Both the position numbers and the translations under genes were made by a program. The notes beneath the pieces were generated by a model. It ran no database searches and was not told the DNA's origin. It worked only from the letters and a program-made list of their open reading frames with translations. A DNA stretch of 9,856 bases from a virus (Duplodnaviria > Heunggongvirae > Uroviricota > Caudoviricetes). Shown in pieces: positions 2,287 through 9,856 of the stretch; the stretch's first letter is position 1; every line of letters starts with the position of its first letter. Where the stretch lies: IMG/VR virus record IMGVR_UViG_2698536570_000006, positions 1 through 9,856 of that record; one strand, 5' to 3'.

Positions 2287-2780
2287 TGCTGACCCCACAA
2301 ACAGATTTCACGCTCAATCTCACGACGAGTCATGAGACCTTTCCATTGCTTACCGCCAGCATATGTCCAGCGACGTAGCTGATCACATGCGCCTTTGATA
2401 TCGCCCTGGTTTATTTTGCGAAGAAGCGTCGATGTTCTGAAATTGCCAGCACCCACGTTGTAAACGAATGAGTAAAGAGCGCCGCGCATTGTTTCCGGTA
2501 TATCGACTTTGATGTACGGGTTAATTTGTCTGGCGACCGTGGCAAGGTCTTTATTCAGGAGGGCTTTGCATTCTGCTTTGGTATACGTTTTACCGAGCAT
2601 GATGTCTTTTCCTGTATGCCCGTGACATACAGTCCATACACCAACAATATCTTTGTATGGTATGTAGCTGACACCTTCCAGACCATCGTTACCACTTGGG
2701 CCAGTAATTAACACTGATGCTATAGCAATTGCTCCGCCACCAATAGCAGCAGCAACGGCTTTTCGTAATGATGGAGGCAT
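2283..2780 (-). CDS. rrrD: SAR (signal-anchor-release) endolysin, T4-lysozyme-type muramidase, 165 aa
   Basis: Gly/Ala-rich weakly hydrophobic N-terminus ([20 protein letters not shown]) typical of a SAR domain, followed by a lysozyme core (...[16 protein letters not shown]...); matches K-12 RrrD/phage 21 R as recalled. ATG at 2780 overlaps the holin stop (TAATG). Confidence 0.9.
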
Positions 2781-2995
2781 TATTCACCTCTCGCAGCCTT
2801 GCGCTTATCTTCTTTAATCTTGAAATAAAGGTTTGTCAGGTACGTCAGCAGGCCAAATACCAGGCTACCCAGCACACCTATTGCTGCCCACTGTGAGGGC
2901 GTGACTTTATCGAGCAGCTGTAAAAACCAGTAACCGGCACTACCTGCTGAGGTGCCATAGGCGACACCCGTTGTTAACTTATCCATGGATTTCAT
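2780..2995 (-). CDS. essD: Class II pinholin (S21-like) with dual-start MKSM motif, 71 aa (68-aa form from Met4)
   Basis: [71 protein letters not shown]: two TMDs and a charged C-terminus, S21-like. GAGGTGGGG RBS upstream of ATG at 2995. The track's 86-aa extension to 3040 is rejected. Confidence 0.88.
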
Positions 2996-3040
2996 AACCC
3001 CACCTCGCAGACAAAGCGGGTGTAAATTGAGGGAATACAA

Positions 3041-3584
3041 CGTATCGCAAAAAAGCAGAAACGTAACAGACTCGGAGTCAGTGAATAACTCAGGTATTGA
3101 GTTATCAGCTAATATCGAGACTCAAAAAATGGAAAAACCAGCTCGACGGCGGGTTTAAGCTGTGTGACGAAGTAACCACTCTTAACAGCATAACCAATTT
3201 TTTACGTACGTAAACCACTGAATGATATTTATGAGAATGCTACCGAGTGTTCAAAACACCACCACAAATACATAAGAAAACCTCAACAAATAACCAACAA
3301 ATAATTTCCAGTGTTATTTTTAGCCGATTTAAATTGAACCTTCAAATTATAGAGCACTTATAAATAACAGCTGTTAATATAAATTGGCTAATAGATTTAT
3401 TTTTATTCAGCCAAGAGCTATGAATAGGATTCGATAGAAAAAAGTTCAGATAAAAATAGAGATCTACTTCACAAATCAAACGAGAAACCAAAACTTACAT
3501 CTTGAAATAATCACATTGATTAGATGAATATTTATCGCGCAGTGACATCATTTTTTAATAATAGTTCAAAAAAAAGGGCTCACG
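3041..3584. promoter_or_regulatory. Long AT-rich intergenic region upstream of the porin gene, divergent from the holin start; presumed porin promoter and regulatory region
   Basis: About 540 bp with no ORF of note. Contains a 12-bp palindrome TTACGTACGTAA (3202-3213), a tandem direct repeat CAACAAATAA-c-CAACAAATAA (3284-3304), and an AAGGG RBS before the porin ATG. No promoter hexamers could be assigned confidently by eye. Confidence 0.4.
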
Positions 3585-4682
3585 ATGAAAAAATTAACAG
3601 TGGCAATTTCTGCTGTAGCTGCATCAGTACTGATGGCGATGTCTGCTCAGGCAGCTGAAATTTATAATAAAGACAGTAACAAGCTGGATCTGTACGGGAA
3701 AGTTAATGCCAAGCACTACTTCTCCTCTAATGATGCAGATGATGGTGATACTACTTATGCCCGTCTTGGCTTCAAAGGTGAAACCCAAATCAACGATCAA
3801 CTGACTGGTTTCGGTCAGTGGGAATATGAATTCAAAGGCAACCGCGCTGAATCTCAAGGTTCCTCCAAAGACAAAACCCGTCTTGCATTTGCAGGCCTGA
3901 AATTCGGTGACTACGGCTCAATCGATTACGGCCGTAACTACGGTGTAGCATACGACATCGGTGCGTGGACTGACGTTCTGCCAGAATTCGGTGGCGATAC
4001 CTGGACCCAAACAGATGTGTTCATGACTGGTCGCACCACTGGTGTTGCAACCTATCGTAACAACGACTTCTTTGGTCTGGTTGATGGTCTGAACTTTGCT
4101 GCTCAGTACCAAGGCAAAAACGATCGTAGCGATTTCGATAACTACACTGAAGGTAACGGTGATGGCTTCGGTTTCTCTGCTACCTATGAATACGAAGGAT
4201 TCGGTATCGGTGCAACTTATGCGAAATCTGATCGTACCGACACTCAAGTTAATGCAGGGAAAGTTCTTCCTGAAGTATTTGCTTCCGGTAAAAATGCAGA
4301 AGTTTGGGCCGCAGGTCTGAAATATGACGCTAACAACATTTACCTGGCCACTACCTATTCTGAAACCCAGAATATGACTGTATTTGCTGATCACTTCGTT
4401 GCTAATAAAGCCCAAAACTTCGAAGCTGTTGCACAATATCAGTTCGATTTCGGTCTGCGTCCGTCCGTTGCTTACCTGCAATCTAAAGGTAAAGATCTTG
4501 GAGTATGGGGCGATCAGGACTTAGTCAAATATGTTGATGTAGGTGCAACCTATTACTTCAACAAAAATATGTCTACTTTCGTTGATTACAAAATCAACCT
4601 GCTTGACAAAAATGACTTCACTAAAGCACTCGGTGTAAGCACTGATGACATCGTTGCTGTAGGTCTGGTTTACCAGTTCTAA
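3585..4682 (+). CDS. nmpC: General-diffusion outer-membrane porin of the OmpC/OmpF/PhoE family (NmpC/Lc-type prophage porin), 365 aa, apparently intact
   Basis: Signal peptide [23 protein letters not shown] then AEIYNK. Porin hallmarks are [64 protein letters not shown] and the C-terminal VGLVYQF with terminal Phe. It is encoded opposite to the flanking Q and lysis genes, as in DLP12/PA-2. Confidence 0.9.
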
Positions 4683-4707
4683 TCTGATTACGAAAAAGAT
4701 ATGTTGC

Positions 4708-4724
4708 GGGAGGCGTTGCCTCCC
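4708..4724 (-). terminator. Hairpin GGGAGGC-gtt-GCCTCCC followed on the minus strand by a CTTTTT tract about 10 nt away; candidate early terminator or late-leader structure
   Basis: Perfect 7-bp GC-rich stem seen directly. The U-tract is displaced from the stem, so terminator function is uncertain. Confidence 0.3.
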
Positions 4725-4820
4725 CAACATATAAGTGGCTCCCTCAAGCCACTTCCTTTAGAAGCACAACCTTGCTTCTAACTATATAAACCTTCTGTTA
4801 TATATTACCCTTTATTTTTG

Positions 4821-4855
4821 GGGGCGTCTCAACGCCCCATTTTTAATAATTTTTA
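4821..4855 (+). terminator. Rho-independent terminator (GGGGCGT-ctca-ACGCCCC then ATTTTTAATAATTTTT), probably ending the porin transcript
   Basis: 7-bp GC-rich stem, 4-nt loop, immediate T-run on the plus strand, about 140 nt after the porin stop. It also lies just downstream of the Q stop on the other strand. Confidence 0.6.
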
Positions 4856-4871
4856 GTAAACAATTGGCATA

Positions 4872-5255
4872 TTAATTAGAGTTATTAACAACGATATCCA
4901 TCTCTAACCGGATATCTAATGCCATTAACATCCCTTCAATTATGCCCTCAGCCTTCTGTAACCTTTTCCCGATATAACCATCAGAGCAGCAATGCTTACC
5001 TGCCAGTGACATGAATGTCATACCGACTACATAATAATCTACTAATAAATCGTGCAAATCGCTGTTGTTCTTTTTCAGACGGGCCATGCACCCGCAAATG
5101 ATCATCGCGTCATCGTCACAACATTGCGGGCGAGATTTTACTTTTGAAGGAATTAATCCCTTAAAACCGGCGGCAATGGACGACCAGGTCACATCTTCAT
5201 GATTATTAGCCGCCCACGCTCCCCAACGCTCAAGAACCATCTGAATATCACGCAT
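4872..5255 (-). CDS. quuD: Q-like late-gene antiterminator, 127 aa
   Basis: [60 protein letters not shown]..., matching K-12 QuuD as recalled; Cys-rich, suggesting a zinc-binding motif. ATG at 5255 has GGAG 9 nt upstream. The track's TTG-initiated extension to 5270 is rejected. Confidence 0.85.
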
Positions 5256-5340
5256 CAACTTACTCCACAAAAATCAGACCAGAACGCCAATCACAAGCAA
5301 AAATCAACAAAACAGTATTAGTTGATTGTTATCTCTGACT

Positions 5341-6937: not shown

Positions 6938-7720
6938 TTAGGCGCAATACAAAGGATCATTAGCAGCTCTAATACCGCCCTGAATCGCAAGCCCTGTATG
7001 GCAATTTGACATTGAGCATGATTGCCATCTGTGCAAGGGACCTCCATTAATCGAAACTTCCAGCAGATCTTTATCTCCTTTCATCCTGACCCCTTCATAC
7101 AACATATCAAGACGCTCAACAATCAATCCTGTTGGAGGTTCCATTTTTAGAACGAGGGCAAACTCTCCTGGCCCACGTCGTATTGTTATACGCGGGCCGG
7201 TACACTCCATATCCCAATTGTCTGATTTAGCTTTCCATTCATTTTCATCTATCAGTAAAGTCTCCTTACCAATAGAATTACAGAAAATTCCTGATAAAAG
7301 CATCGGTCCATGTGGTATGGGTGAAGGTTTCACAGAAAGAATGGGTTGTTCGTTGACTACAATCAAATTTTGACAGTTATGAAACGTCACTCCTGCAAAT
7401 TTTACTGTTATAGGCTCATTATGAAAATCAAACATTTCATTTGCAAAACCAGCCTGTAAGCACTTGGGATTTCTGTCAGCTATTTCCACTGTCTGTGCTG
7501 AAAGTCTACCACGAGCTCTTTTTTGATTGCATTGGGAGCAAAGAAGTGTCATTCCATTCGGATCATGTATTTTGGCATCAACGAAGTCAGGTTTAAAATG
7601 CTCATAATCATAAAATCCAAATCCACAAATTACACAGCCAAAGCCGCACCTTTGCCTTATCTGACGTTTTATTGTCTCAGGTATTCTTCTTGAGAGCCCG
7701 TGTTTATTAATATTGTCCAT
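6938..7720 (-). CDS. Uncharacterised 260-aa protein with an N-terminal HNH-type (zinc-finger) nuclease motif and an about 190-aa C-terminal domain of unknown function
   Basis: Residues about 25-68 read CGFGCVICGFGFYDYEHFKPDFVDAKIHDPNGMTLLCSQCNQKRA, fitting the HNH pattern CxxC...(D/E)H...P...N..LLC..C(N/H)..K. I recognise no family for the remainder. AT-rich coding sequence, weak RBS, ATG at 7720. Confidence 0.7.
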   Translation of the reverse strand: MDNINKHGLSRRIPETIKRQIRQRCGFGCVICGFGFYDYEHFKPDFVDAKIHDPNGMTLLCSQCNQKRARGRLSAQTVEIADRNPKCLQAGFANEMFDFHNEPITVKFAGVTFHNCQNLIVVNEQPILSVKPSPIPHGPMLLSGIFCNSIGKETLLIDENEWKAKSDNWDMECTGPRITIRRGPGEFALVLKMEPPTGLIVERLDMLYEGVRMKGDKDLLEVSINGGPLHRWQSCSMSNCHTGLAIQGGIRAANDPLYCA

Positions 7721-7894: not shown

Positions 7895-8218
7895 TTATTG
7901 AAACAGATTCTGAGGTAAATGCGGCAATACTCGACTCCACTTATCATCCTGCCACGGCTGAAGTTTTACATGTGCCGTTTCTCGGGCGAGGATTGCTCGC
8001 GCTCTGTTGAGTATCTGGGGATATTCTTGCTCGATGGAAGTGAAGTGACCAGCCTCACCATGCTCCGCATCCTGAAGAAGATGAGTAACGTTCTGGTAGG
8101 CAATTAACATCACATTCCCTGCTCGCCATAACCAGGCGAGTGTGCAAAGTTCGTTATCAGTGAATTGTTTTGTGATTGGGAATTGTTGAACTGCTAGAAC
8201 GAGAACGCCAGCATCCAT
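7895..8218 (-). CDS. Hypothetical protein, 107 aa, no recognisable family
   Basis: ORF MDAGVLVLAVQQFPITKQFTDNELCTLAWLWRAGNVMLIAYQNVTHLLQDAEHGEAGHF... with GGGA 6 nt upstream of ATG at 8218. Same strand as its neighbours and protein-like composition, but the coding status is unproven; an antisense 62-aa ORF also exists. Confidence 0.4.
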   Translation of the reverse strand: MDAGVLVLAVQQFPITKQFTDNELCTLAWLWRAGNVMLIAYQNVTHLLQDAEHGEAGHFTSIEQEYPQILNRARAILARETAHVKLQPWQDDKWSRVLPHLPQNLFQ

Positions 8219-8329: not shown

Positions 8330-9856
8330 TCAAAAATAAACCTCACCATCAACCATATATTTGAGAGTACTTATCGCCTGCTGGGCGGATATTGTTTTCA
8401 TTAAAGGATAGTGTTTAAAAACAATGCCATTCATAAAATAGATATCACAGGTTTTATTATCTGTATTGATTATGATTTTTTCGAATGTTTTATAGGCAAG
8501 TGTACGACATAGCTCTCGCCCATTTTTACTGGTTAAGTCAATAGCATGAAAATCACCAAGTGAACTCACCGCTTTACTCTTCAAAGTTTTTAATGATACC
8601 GAAGCCCTTCGTAATTCCTTATCTAATACTCTGATTTTTTCTGCTATAGCGGTAACTTCAGGCGCGACAGACAATGCAACGATTAAATTATTAATTTTCA
8701 TCTGAAGCTCAATAATTTTTAACTCTAAAGTTTCATTAGCATCTTTCTTGTTTTCAACTGGTTGAATTTTGCCACAATTAAAAAGCAATTCATTAATGAT
8801 ATTATAATCAACCAAATCTCTTTTTATTGATGGCCTGTCACATCGATGTAATCTTCTCATCGGACAAACATAATAGCCATGCAAACTTCCAGATACCGCA
8901 TGAACAATCATGGTATTACCACAAGCCTCACACTTCATAACTGTTCGAAGTAGATTTATTAGCATAGGATTCTTGCTACTATTGCTAATACCAAAAGGTG
9001 CCAACCGAATTTCCTGTACAGCGTAAAACAAATCATCTGATATGACTCTGGGATAATAGCCAGCGATTTCACTTATCCCTTTCCCTCTTGCACGATATGA
9101 AGGTACGCATATACCTATCAGAGCTTTATTCGCTAATAATTTTTCAATTACAGAAGGCCCCCATGCACTTTCTTTTCCTGAGAAATTCTTTACAGCATGA
9201 TCATTTAAATACTTGGCTATTGCATTCAATGAGCGCCTTTCCATCCTGAGTTTAAAAATTAGCTCAATAGTTTTCACCCTGTCGGGGTCTGGAACAAAGG
9301 CCGTTCTTTTGTCATCTAAGGAGAGCCATCTCGGACAAGACGCCGTCATAATCGTACCTGATTCCAGTGCATCCTGCCGTTTTTTCTTCCATGATAATTT
9401 AACCCGACTTGACTTTATCTCGCTTTCTTCATTTGCCCTTTGTGCTATAAGTATGGCTTTTATTAATGAATATGGCTCATTCAAAGAGTCAATATTATAG
9501 ACTGTATTGTCGCAAAGAGTTATAACATCAATACCGTGATTCAAAATCAATTTCAGACGTTCAATCGCTTCACCGACTTTTTCTCTTGAAAGTCTGTCCA
9601 GACTTTCAACTAACAATGTAGTTCCTGGCAATATATAACCATGCTCTATAGCATCTAAAAATTCCGAAAAAGCTCCTGATTGTGCATGCTTTCCTTTGAA
9701 TGCACTTAATCCTAAATCTTCATATGTTATGGTATCAAGATAATAATCACTATTTACCTTTAACCATTCAGCAATAAGTCTTCTCTGTCGGTTTAATGAG
9801 TCGCCAGACATCTGACCTGGTGATGAAAATCGCATATATGCTATGGCTTTTTTCAT
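8330..9856 (-). CDS. ybcK: Large serine recombinase (YbcK-like): resolvase-type catalytic domain, recombinase domain, Cys-rich zinc-ribbon-like segment and predicted C-terminal coiled coil; 508 aa
   Basis: N-terminal AIAYMRFSSPGQ...SLNRQ...TLLVESLDRLSR fits the serine-recombinase catalytic motifs (YxRVS..Q, SLxRQ, DRLxR). CEACGNTMIV...YYVCPMRRLHRCD is a candidate zinc ribbon; the C-terminal region is Leu/Ile/Lys/Glu-rich. The ATG sits exactly at the window end (9856), so the promoter and anything upstream are not visible. About 35% GC. Confidence 0.85.
   Translation of the reverse strand: MKKAIAYMRFSSPGQMSGDSLNRQRRLIAEWLKVNSDYYLDTITYEDLGLSAFKGKHAQSGAFSEFLDAIEHGYILPGTTLLVESLDRLSREKVGEAIERLKLILNHGIDVITLCDNTVYNIDSLNEPYSLIKAILIAQRANEESEIKSSRVKLSWKKKRQDALESGTIMTASCPRWLSLDDKRTAFVPDPDRVKTIELIFKLRMERRSLNAIAKYLNDHAVKNFSGKESAWGPSVIEKLLANKALIGICVPSYRARGKGISEIAGYYPRVISDDLFYAVQEIRLAPFGISNSSKNPMLINLLRTVMKCEACGNTMIVHAVSGSLHGYYVCPMRRLHRCDRPSIKRDLVDYNIINELLFNCGKIQPVENKKDANETLELKIIELQMKINNLIVALSVAPEVTAIAEKIRVLDKELRRASVSLKTLKSKAVSSLGDFHAIDLTSKNGRELCRTLAYKTFEKIIINTDNKTCDIYFMNGIVFKHYPLMKTISAQQAISTLKYMVDGEVYF

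Follow-up and report, generated by a model that had tools for sequence, protein, structure and literature searches.

The lc/nmpC porin genes were among the earliest phage conversion genes to be sequenced. In PA-2, a plaque-forming phage, lc (GenBank J02580, 1986) lies with Q on one side and the holin, endolysin and Rz genes on the other. The cryptic K-12 prophage DLP12 (qsr') carries the order ybcN-ninE-ybcO-rusA-ylcG-quuD-nmpC-essD-rrrD-rzpD-borD. Published studies report NmpC pore conductance and thermoregulation of NmpC/lc, with induction at 37 °C, and cite work on high NmpC expression in E. coli AW1.7 and its contribution to heat resistance. The other described systems of relevance here are the late promoters pR', which abut Q in lambda and in Stx phages. 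That of VT1-Sakai is annotated as TTTACG-16-TATCAT, and a start placed 7 nt past its -10 accounts exactly for the 258-nt length of StxS, an RNA mapped by Term-seq.

We examined a stretch of 9,856 nt (the window), a 100% match to E. coli AW1.7, in which the element hosting the porin cassette is a defective DLP12-like prophage, in contrast to plaque-forming PA-2. Sequence comparison identifies the cassette as an intact copy of lc/nmpC, the classical lysogenic-conversion porin carried by lambdoid prophages of the PA-2/DLP12 type. The porin itself is thus already known, and what is corrected here is the placement of the late promoter, which most probably lies on the side facing the holin. A sequence-only reading of the locus had proposed that Q-dependent late transcription traverses about 1.6 kb of porin antisense. 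Instead, the only pR'-type unit in the window is located at 3214-3133 on the minus strand, downstream of the porin for late transcription. This places the porin cassette between Q and pR', so that late transcripts would leave the porin behind. The best overall explanation, to which we assign a probability of about 0.8, is an lc/nmpC cassette inserted antisense between Q and pR'.

The porin gene (3585-4682, plus strand) is a single uninterrupted ORF encoding 365 aa. The Porin_1 profile (PF00267) covers the protein in full (profile positions 1-337 of 337, E=1e-156), residues 24-365 align end to end with the solved OmpC, OmpK36 and OmpF (E ~1e-135) and the constriction-loop L3 motif PEFGG is present. 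A cleavable Sec signal peptide of 23 aa (3585-3653) corresponds to the sig_peptide annotated in J02580, and the protein ends in VYQF, with Phe as the C-terminal aromatic residue. The product is therefore predicted, by homology, to be a trimeric 16-strand beta-barrel forming an outer-membrane pore, and the cassette would thus encode a Sec-exported porin of the OmpC/OmpF type. These data bear out the earlier description of a 365-aa porin with a full signal peptide and a C-terminal Phe, encoded between the Q antiterminator and the holin on the opposite strand (quuD and essD are both on the minus strand).

Comparison with the two known copies revealed an intact frame with only two residue differences from each. 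PA-2 Lc is identical at 363/365 residues (differences R99H and V154F, possibly 1986 sequencing differences) and, once IS5 is removed, K-12 NmpC differs by G149Q and T151A. At the nucleotide level, PA-2 is 99.3% identical over 3041-4871 (leader, ORF and 3'UTR), and its record shares with the window the annotated CRP sites, the 23-aa signal peptide and the tR' stem allele. As previously stated for K-12, nmpC is disrupted there, by IS5 after codon 346; no IS5 is found at codon 346 in the window. This does not make the intact copy a special state, since the IS5 site is uninterrupted in 770 of the 1069 genomes that carry the porin 3' end; besides K-12, 434B also has IS5 in the porin gene. More distantly, the chromosomal OmpD-type porins of Salmonella, Citrobacter and Enterobacter share the Porin_1 fold family and 74-79% aa identity over their full length. 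Unlike the cassette, their loci lie outside prophages and are without IpeX, and no similarity of the upstream or 3' flanks to the cassette was found at these loci in Citrobacter, Salmonella and Enterobacter.

Downstream of the ORF, positions 4683-4849 (plus strand) correspond to the IpeX region, a structured 3'UTR closed by an intrinsic terminator (stem 4821-4838, T-run 4840-4844). The earlier delimitation of the cassette as 3041-4682 held for the ORF and missed this 3'UTR, which lies just beyond it. The sequence is identical to the K-12 region that defined IpeX, with about 167 nt to the terminator and four to five stable hairpins, and its fold (MFE -62.9 kcal/mol, z=-9.5) is strongly stable. 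An Rfam scan of the whole window returned nothing relevant, Rfam having no IpeX model. The 189-bp spacer between porin and Q (4683-4871) is 100% identical to K-12 and PA-2, an identity that holds over 4660-4900, and in the E. albertii locus homology to the window stops at 4847. According to the literature, IpeX lowers OmpC and OmpF; from its identity, the 167-nt window copy is predicted to do the same. Expression of the cassette would therefore swap the major porins, removing phage receptors and altering permeability. The role in superinfection exclusion proposed earlier is consistent with the lc/IpeX literature.

On the minus strand of the same spacer, 11 nt from the porin stop codon, a hairpin of about 16 bp with one bulge is followed by TTTTT (4693-4733). 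One compared locus carries a compensatory C-G to T-A change in its stem. As judged by sequence and fold, it probably terminates the Q transcript. The Q gene itself, quuD (4872-5255, minus strand), encodes a 127-aa antiterminator (PF06530, E=8.5e-54) that shares 82% identity with H-19B Q over residues 1-126, with similarity stopping near residue 120. Q and porin would thus converge, with a terminator for each direction. We also considered 'ORF1' of PA-2 (window 4521-4730, minus strand) as a first late gene. It was rejected: a 1-nt indel or stop codons interrupt its frame in five compared loci, and it has no Pfam match.

At the other end of the cassette, window positions 3133-3215 match the promoter, qut and terminator annotated for H-19B and VT1-Sakai. 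The pR' homolog (3187-3214, minus strand) consists of a -35 TTTACG (3214-3209), a 16-nt spacer and a -10 TATGCT (3192-3187). Its -35 and spacer length are those of VT1-Sakai, and its -10 stands where Stx phages (H-19B, 933W, VT1-Sakai) have TATCAT. The hexamer matches are weak (8/12). The initial transcribed sequence TAAGAGTGGTTAC (3172-3184, minus strand) is a unique exact match in the window and is invariant across 7 aligned phages. It is followed by a hairpin and T-run, CCCGC CGTCGA GCTGG TTTTT (3133-3153, minus strand), homologous to the putative terminator of the Stx-phage pR' transcript. The window allele of this hairpin has a C/U stem mismatch, which gives a free energy of -5.3 kcal/mol in the window and PA-2 versus -11.5 in K-12, where the stem is intact (GCGGG). 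Among DLP12/PA-2-type loci, the GCTGG and GCGGG alleles occur at n=17 and n=22, respectively. The Stx-phage unit, source of StxS, thus shares with the window the invariant initial transcribed sequence, the hairpin and T-run and the symmetry of a dyad described below, and its cognate Q is about 80% identical. It differs in location, since in Stx phages it abuts the Q stop codon whereas in the window it is found 1.64 kb away, behind the porin. Sequences beyond the first hairpin, including the 3' part of StxS, are unrelated.

From the homology with VT1-Sakai pR', late transcripts in the window would start near A3180, giving a predicted 5' leader on the minus strand from A3180 to the essD ATG (2996-3180), in which a 16-bp stretch (3043-3058) is deleted in K-12. 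Between 3128 and 2996 no clear second terminator was identified; in Stx phages the mapped RNA 3' end is found past the hairpin, at +258. The first gene reached, essD (2780-2995, minus strand; PF04971, E=2e-35), encodes an S21-type holin, is so annotated in AW1.7 and heads the late lysis cassette. The late promoter thus probably lies between the holin and porin genes, and late transcripts would form without crossing the latter. In one locus whose downstream late genes differ, the pR' unit is nonetheless co-inherited with quuD. A possible remnant of the longer Q933 C-terminal tail was sought upstream of the pR' -35 (3216-3290); only scattered, unconvincing matches were obtained in a MAFFT alignment.

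The crossing of the porin as first proposed would require a pR' immediately downstream of quuD, from which Q-modified RNA polymerase would read about 1.6 kb of porin antisense and the AT-rich leader. This is where lambda and Stx phages have their promoter (all H-19B-type loci show a Q-to-pR' gap of -14), and the minus strand of the Q-porin spacer is also strongly structured. That spacer, however, has the terminator-like hairpin and T-run at its end on this strand and is the reverse complement of IpeX. No promoter-like site was found on the minus strand between Q and porin (4683-4871) with a simple scan, which also missed pR'; this promoter and terminator scan missed the bulged minus-strand hairpin as well and found only the plus-strand porin terminator. 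In addition, the unit at 3214-3133 is unique in the window, and related phages with other cargo likewise have pR' beyond the cargo. We therefore consider a promoter next to quuD very improbable. Antisense reading of the porin could still arise in an intact phage by N-antiterminated read-through from the early operon.

The pR' unit also accounts for a palindrome that had been listed among candidate regulator sites of the porin. The 12-bp TTACGTACGTAA at 3202-3213 is indeed present and grows to a perfect 14-bp palindrome, TTTACGTACGTAAA (3201-3214). Palindromes of at least 12 bp occurred in 20% of 2000 dinucleotide-preserving shuffles of 3041-3584, and those of at least 14 bp in 5.5%. Two properties do not fit a role in porin regulation, namely its overlap with the pR' -35 and its co-variation with Q subtype. 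Using TAAGAGTGGTTAC as a search seed, we collected 120 IMG/VR loci, in which the dyad tracks the Q cluster; at equal offset, a distinct dyad is found in each of six Q-protein groups. The Stx-phage dyad, TTTACGATCGTAAA, remains symmetrical despite a TA-to-AT swap at its centre. Since the palindrome overlaps the -35 and changes with Q subtype, TTTACGTACGTAAA is a candidate site probably bound by Q.

The AT-rich DNA between essD and the porin had been described as a single regulatory leader of 540 bp. The interval 3041-3584 (544 bp) has 32.9% GC and 3200-3584 has 29.4%, compared to 44.9% for the whole window. The true intergenic region begins at 2996, position 3041 resulting from a mechanically TTG-extended ORF, and it resolves into two parts: the late-operon promoter and leader (2996-3215), and the AT-rich porin upstream region with the lc/nmpC promoter (3216-3584, plus strand, 27-29% GC). 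The proposal that this DNA is regulatory and a target of H-NS agrees with PMC3661553, which lists a 354-bp stretch of the intergenic region between K-12 nmpC and essD as a 'promoter island' bound by H-NS in every ChIP study compared. H-NS binding is predicted for the window too, the K-12 region being 96.5% identical over 3216-3584.

In K-12, PnmpC is a sigma70 promoter with a 'G' start site determined by 5'RACE, lies at most 199 bp from the ATG and has reported Crp, OmpR, IHF and MprA sites (PMC11677980). In the window, the putative porin promoter (3502-3531, plus strand) combines a -35 TTGAAA (3502-3507) and a -10 TGAATA/GAATAT (3525-3531), with transcription probably starting at G3537 or G3539. 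These promoter blocks are invariant across 8 leaders; we infer the assignment of the hexamers within them. Two CRP sites are annotated in J02580. 'CRP site 1', mapped by offset to 3160-3180 (plus strand), falls inside the pR' initial transcribed region and fits the consensus only in its TGTGA half; its conservation is explained by the overlapping pR'. CRP site 2 (TGTGAAGTAGATCTCT, 3456-3476, minus strand) is nearly invariant in diverged leaders and is centred about 71.5 bp upstream of the putative porin transcription start. The porin promoter, some 50-80 bp ahead of the ATG, would thus be of the sigma70 type, CRP-activated, H-NS-bound and thermoregulated, within a self-contained plus-strand cassette extending from about 3216 or 3433 to 4849.

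The same region holds a tandem repeat that had been proposed as a regulator site. Two copies of CAACAAATAA (3284-3293 and 3295-3304, plus strand, period 11) and a degenerate third, ACCACAAATA (3261-3270), are present as described, and a close direct repeat of at least 10 nt occurred in only 2.9% of 2000 dinucleotide-preserving shuffles of 3041-3584. Taken alone, repeat and palindrome are only weakly beyond chance. Binding of a porin regulator (OmpR, IHF or other) to the repeats would be in line with this rarity and with the OmpR, IHF and MprA sites of the PnmpC literature (PMC11677980). The 3' end of copy 2, moreover, sits in an element that survives in leaders of only 78-81% identity. This conserved element is, however, a different and inverted one, AAATAA-N9-TTATTT (3299-3319), whose two arms stay unchanged in 8 leaders (78-100% identity) around a variable spacer; upstream of 3433, nothing else in the E. 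albertii locus can still be aligned. The repeats themselves do not persist as a tandem. At its fourth base, copy 2 has C in the window, T in PA-2 and A in K-12; copy 1 reads CGATAGATAA in E. albertii and AAACAAATAA or AAACAAACAT in other variants, and is lost in diverged homologs; and the third copy is ACTACAAATA in K-12. Regulator binding to these repeats is thus quite unlikely.

A published model for DLP12 places the lysis promoter elsewhere. PMC7918800, which cites Rueggeberg 2013 and 2015, describes the lysis cassette as being under Q, RpoE and Hha control, and the primers of the 'essDp' fragment ('-121 to +650') map to window 3657 and about 2871, with +1 near 3536 on the minus strand. By this mapping, 'essDp' lies about 540 nt upstream of essD and about 350 bp upstream of pR', overlapping the porin promoter. 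In the defective prophage, this RpoE-dependent promoter could drive the lysis cassette, the pR' homolog being a relic or a pause/termination site on the resulting long leader. RpoE-like hexamers, GAACT (3567-3563) and TCACT (3545-3541) in the arrangement GAACT-N16-TCACT, are indeed present in our mapping at the implied position (3541-3567, minus strand). They overlap the conserved porin 5'UTR and RBS, and their conservation is therefore uninformative on an antisense promoter. In contrast, the Q-subtype dyad, initial transcribed sequence and hairpin at 3214-3133 are conserved among functional phages and inherited together with the Q gene, and a transcript from 3536 must still pass the pR' unit. 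We consider this model unlikely as a replacement for pR', the two promoters not being mutually exclusive.

With the cassette between Q and pR', the late promoter and the porin promoter would stand back to back over about 320 bp of AT-rich DNA. Q would act on a target, pR' with its Q-subtype-specific dyad (3214-3187, minus strand), from which the cassette separates its gene, and Q-modified late transcription would start near 3180 and proceed into essD-rrrD-rzpD, away from the porin.

This arrangement extends beyond the porin. It is also seen in functional phages, and in the 120 loci Q and pR' either overlap or lie up to 2.4 kb apart. The gap is about 1.64 kb, the size of the porin cassette, in all QuuD-type loci but one 85%-identical outlier. 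In related phages the gap holds different antisense cargo genes, Kiwa and further defence genes among them; the contents found elsewhere comprise Kiwa, a KAP-NTPase (PDC-S20), an HNH effector, an NA37-like protein, an esterase, lipoproteins and a lipocalin. PADLOC gave 0 matches on three unassigned or recombinase proteins of the window (6938-7720, 7895-8218 and 8330-9856). We tentatively propose, at somewhat less than even odds, that the Q-to-pR' interval of lambdoid phages with a PF06530-type Q is a dedicated, insulated slot for lysogen-expressed cargo. Such cargo would almost always be antisense to Q, bordered by the Q-transcript terminator on one side and by the Q-subtype dyad over the pR' -35 on the other. 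If true, the published 'essDp' model of DLP12 overlooks a canonical pR' about 350 bp downstream, and the dyads would be a ready-made specificity code for the PF06530-type Q family.

With the late promoter on the holin side, porin expression and Q-driven lysis would be divergent and insulated, without antisense conflict. The placement of pR' bears on the design of reporter fusions and on experiments with the DLP12 lysis cassette, concerning biofilm, outer-membrane vesicles and RpoE control. More generally, the Q-to-pR' gap is recurrent for conversion and defence genes, which may aid the mining of prophages for defence systems, and its recognition may help to predict Q/promoter pairs, including those of Stx phages.

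The porin ORF (3585-4682, plus strand) encodes 365 aa, comprising a 23-aa signal peptide as read from the ORF, the mature N-terminus AEIYNK, the L3 motif PEFGG and the C-terminal VYQF. Pfam Porin_1 covers it along the whole profile (E=1e-156) and residues 24-365 align with solved OmpC, OmpK36 and OmpF. All sequence statements of the sequence-only reading (ORF, composition, repeat and palindrome) were found correct on re-checking, including that of an intact porin with a signal peptide and a C-terminal Phe. Over 3041-4871 the window shows 99.3% identity with the lc record of phage PA-2 (GenBank J02580), whose annotation covers the porin, its 23-aa signal peptide and a pair of CRP sites. The gene is lc/nmpC, already known and here intact. 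Its product differs by two changes from PA-2 Lc (R99H and V154F) and by two from K-12 NmpC with IS5 removed in silico (G149Q and T151A). K-12 nmpC is indeed disrupted by IS5, which sits after codon 346 there and in the hybrid phage 434B, whereas the window copy is uninterrupted. The same cassette is present in 36 phage genomes, and the porin upstream region was found in 3135 of 5426 complete E. coli genomes. Of 1069 genomes that have this allele, 770 are uninterrupted at the IS5 site, and the listed split copies come from laboratory lineages of K-12, so an intact porin is the normal state in nature. Also present in the 1986 PA-2 record is an 'ORF1' (4521-4730, minus strand), annotated in 434B too, which is antisense to the porin C-terminus and has its start within the first IpeX hairpin; five related loci have a broken frame, which makes it very unlikely that ORF1 is a gene.

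The host element is a defective DLP12-like prophage, and 2780-5270 is 100% identical to the E. coli AW1.7 chromosome. Genes on the minus strand run ybcK recombinase, P22AR_C fragment, 260-aa hypothetical protein, ybcN, ninE, ybcO, rusA, ylcG, quuD, [porin, plus strand], essD, rrrD and rzpD/rzoD, beyond which lie a plus-strand bor/iss gene and then a tail-fibre pseudogene. The 260-aa protein (6938-7720, minus) has two CxxC pairs near its N-terminus and no Pfam or PADLOC match; it stands where K-12 DLP12 has ybcL/ybcM, and its gene adjoins the P22AR C-terminal domain fragment (7895-8218). In E. coli CX15 and NCTC11129 (comparison loci L093 and L094), a ~80% identical version of the porin upstream region sits near yedK/fliE, adjoining ybcM-ybcL-emrE beside an IS200/IS605 element, without annotated porin. 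This is apparently what remains of a decayed DLP12-like element at a different chromosomal site.

Late transcription dependent on Q (quuD, 4872-5255, minus) had been expected to traverse the porin in antisense, which is contradicted by the position of the late promoter pR'. A sensitive search with the leader unexpectedly showed that 3133-3215 is 77-87% identical to the segment directly after Q in Stx phages, and its VT1-Sakai counterpart carries annotations for a late promoter, qut and a terminator. The window unit consists, on the minus strand, of TTTACG (3214-3209), 16 nt, TATGCT (3192-3187), GTTAAGAGTGGTTAC and CCCGC-CGTCGA-GCTGG-TTTTT (3153-3133), and aligns column for column with TTTACG-16-TATCAT-GATAAGAGTGGTTAC...CCCGC-CGATGC-GCGGG-T7 of VT1-Sakai and H-19B. 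TAAGAGTGGTTAC is found at a single place in the window. Over residues 1-126, QuuD shares 82% identity with H-19B Q, the likeness stopping near residue 120. In VT1-Sakai, exactly 258 nt separate a start placed 7 nt past the annotated -10 from the end of the second terminator annotated there, a distance equal to the StxS length by Term-seq; the homologous start in the window would be A3180, 185 nt upstream of the essD ATG. A promoter scan detected no promoter-like site in the minus-strand interval that separates quuD from the porin. Strain 1217KP keeps the quuD-IpeX-porin-leader-pR'-hairpin block and has everything beyond the hairpin swapped for other late genes, which argues that the pR' unit belongs with Q and not with the lysis genes. 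We conclude from these observations that the porin cassette is placed between Q and pR', and that late transcription would begin past the porin and head away from it.

The palindrome noted in the leader is present and extends to 14 bp (3201-3214), although palindromes of at least 12 bp and at least 14 bp arise in 20% and 5.5% of dinucleotide shuffles, respectively. IMG/VR was scanned for the invariant transcribed motif, yielding 120 loci that were oriented and in which the nearest upstream Q was located; these Q proteins form 14 clusters at 85% identity. The dyad that overlaps the -35 and precedes an A-tract has a constant offset and a sequence particular to each Q group: TTTACG(TA/AT)CGTAAA in the QuuD/Q933 group (47 loci), and GCGGTCCGC, GCGTACGC, TGTTATAACA, TGGAATTCCA and ATTCGTTACGAAT in the remaining groups. 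The downstream -10, transcribed motif and hairpin are common to all groups. A Q-binding element would be expected to behave in this way, so the palindrome is most likely the Q site of pR' rather than a porin operator.

PMC7918800 describes cloning of a 'DLP12 promoter region -121 to +650' in the numbering of Rueggeberg 2015. The cloning primers map to window 3657 and ~2871, which would place the +1 of this published essD promoter (essDp) on the minus strand near 3536. Hexamers of RpoE-like type (GAACT-N16-TCACT, minus) lie near this position and overlap the porin 5'UTR, and the conserved pR' unit lies ~350 bp downstream of the mapped +1. Both promoters may exist, and neither requires traversal of the porin ORF.

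Two common alleles of the post-pR' hairpin (3133-3153, minus) were seen in the window, comparison loci L004, L092, L095 and L096 and IMG/VR loci. The GCTGG allele (window, PA-2, G6/7) has a mismatch in the 5-bp stem (-5.3 kcal/mol, versus -11.5 kcal/mol for the GCGGG allele of K-12, 434B and others), and this weaker form permits an alternative CAGCU/AGCUG pairing. The DLP12/PA-2-type loci sampled divide into 17 GCTGG and 22 GCGGG. A 16-bp segment of the essD leader (3043-3058, minus CTGCTTTTTTGCGATA) is present in the window and PA-2 and missing from K-12 and 434B. It adds a T-run after a long compound hairpin and so could affect termination before the holin.

GC content is 32.9% in 3041-3584 and 44.9% in the window as a whole; the proposal of AT-rich regulatory DNA upstream of the porin is reasonable. 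In an alignment of eight versions of this region (78-100% identical), a CRP site (3456-3476, minus, TGTGAAGTAGATCTCT), TTGAAA (3502-3507), ATTGATTAGATGAATAT (3515-3531), GCAGTG (3539-3544) and the porin ribosome-binding site are nearly invariant. The CRP site would be centred near -71.5, a class I position, if the start is G3537 or G3539. These blocks agree with work on K-12 PnmpC, a sigma70 promoter at most 199 bp from the ATG, for which 5'RACE gave a 'G' start; Crp, acting at two sites, is an activator, and OmpR, IHF and MprA are repressors (PMC11677980). 'CRP site 1' of the PA-2 record (3160-3180) falls within the pR' transcribed region and matches the consensus in the TGTGA half only. Farther upstream are conserved short AT-rich blocks, the clearest being the inverted repeat AAATAA-N9-TTATTT (3299-3319). 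The 10-nt tandem repeat (3284-3293 and 3295-3304) is present and moderately unusual (2.9% of dinucleotide shuffles), more so than the palindrome. As a candidate regulator site it is not conserved: copy 1 and the 'third copy' vary freely among homologs, and the fourth base of copy 2 is C in AW1.7, T in PA-2 and A in K-12.

The suggestion of H-NS binding is supported by induction at 37 C and by a 354-bp nmpC/essD intergenic stretch of K-12, one of the 78 'promoter islands' bound by H-NS in all ChIP studies compared (PMC3661553). At 37 C, nmpC RNA is induced 16.5-fold in K-12, and nmpC paralogs are up at the RNA and protein levels in CFT073; a 2025 paper, with reference to Ruan 2011, states that AW1.7 expresses NmpC at a high level and that overexpressing it makes cells heat resistant (PMC5093140, PMC8544407, PMC12890032). 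These reports largely answer the possibility that no porin protein would be detectable. The original observation is confirmed, and its object, lc/nmpC with IpeX, is known, the AW1.7 porin being already a subject of this literature.

Across the 189 bp that separate the porin stop codon from quuD, the window, K-12 and PA-2 are 100% identical. The plus-strand fold of this spacer contains four or five hairpins (-62.9 kcal/mol, z=-9.5), closed by an intrinsic terminator (stem 4821-4838, T-run 4840-4844). This segment, overlooked in the sequence-only reading, is the IpeX region; IpeX is described in PMC12197685, PMC5069750 and PMC3333887 as a 167-nt RNA that is produced within the porin transcript and reduces OmpC and OmpF. 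In the first hairpin there is a single compensatory C-G to T-A change. Homology with a diverged E. albertii locus spans 3433 to 4847 and ends at the terminator, thus delimiting a mobile cassette. Read in the minus direction, the first IpeX hairpin (4733-4698) has TTTTT (4697-4693) directly behind it, at 11 nt from the stop codon of the porin, and looks like a terminator of the Q transcript. If the Q transcript stops there, the Q and porin transcripts would converge and overlap by ~155 nt, and the IpeX region (4693-4849) would be the exact reverse complement of the Q transcript 3' end. Such complementarity could allow mutual antisense effects between porin/IpeX and quuD RNAs.

Among IMG/VR loci, the distance from the Q end to the -35 is -14 (all H-19B/Stx type), 22-65, 595-851, 1086-1688 or 2265-2445 bp. 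With QuuD-type Q it is always ~1.64 kb, corresponding to the porin cassette; the sole exception is an outlier (85% identical, 801 bp). In many related phages (IMG/VR loci L097-L216; phage loci L007-L011) the gap is occupied by antisense cargo of 0.6-2.4 kb, the main ORFs being antisense to Q in 21 of 23 size classes. In IMG/VR loci this cargo includes a complete Kiwa system (KwaA and KwaB), a KAP NTPase (PDC-S20), PDC-M53A, an HNH protein (PDC-M68A), an NA37-like protein, an esterase (alpha/beta hydrolase) and small lipoproteins; in Lambda_ev087 it is a lipocalin. Several two-gene cargos (a ~300-aa protein with a ~150-180-aa membrane protein, as in L165 and L126) gave no Pfam or PADLOC match. 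The annotated phages SfII, PhiR40_1, Stx2a_1447 and mEp460_4F5 share the layout, and a limited literature search found no published description of the slot. Among Q proteins of this family, similarity ends at about residue 120 and the C-terminal tail varies with what follows (porin cassette, other cargo, or pR' directly). The sequences suggest a recombination junction inside the Q 3' end.

The earlier interpretation thus finds partial support. Moron status, regulatory AT-rich DNA, H-NS and a role of the porin in exclusion are reasonable, whereas antisense traversal, its most distinctive point, is contradicted by where pR' lies; of the two motifs, the palindrome is reassigned and the tandem repeat lacks conservation. 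The receptor of PA-2 is OmpC. Given the recurrence of cargo in this gap, the porin and IpeX module occupies a recurrent conversion/defence slot, a position that fits a receptor-swap or exclusion role.
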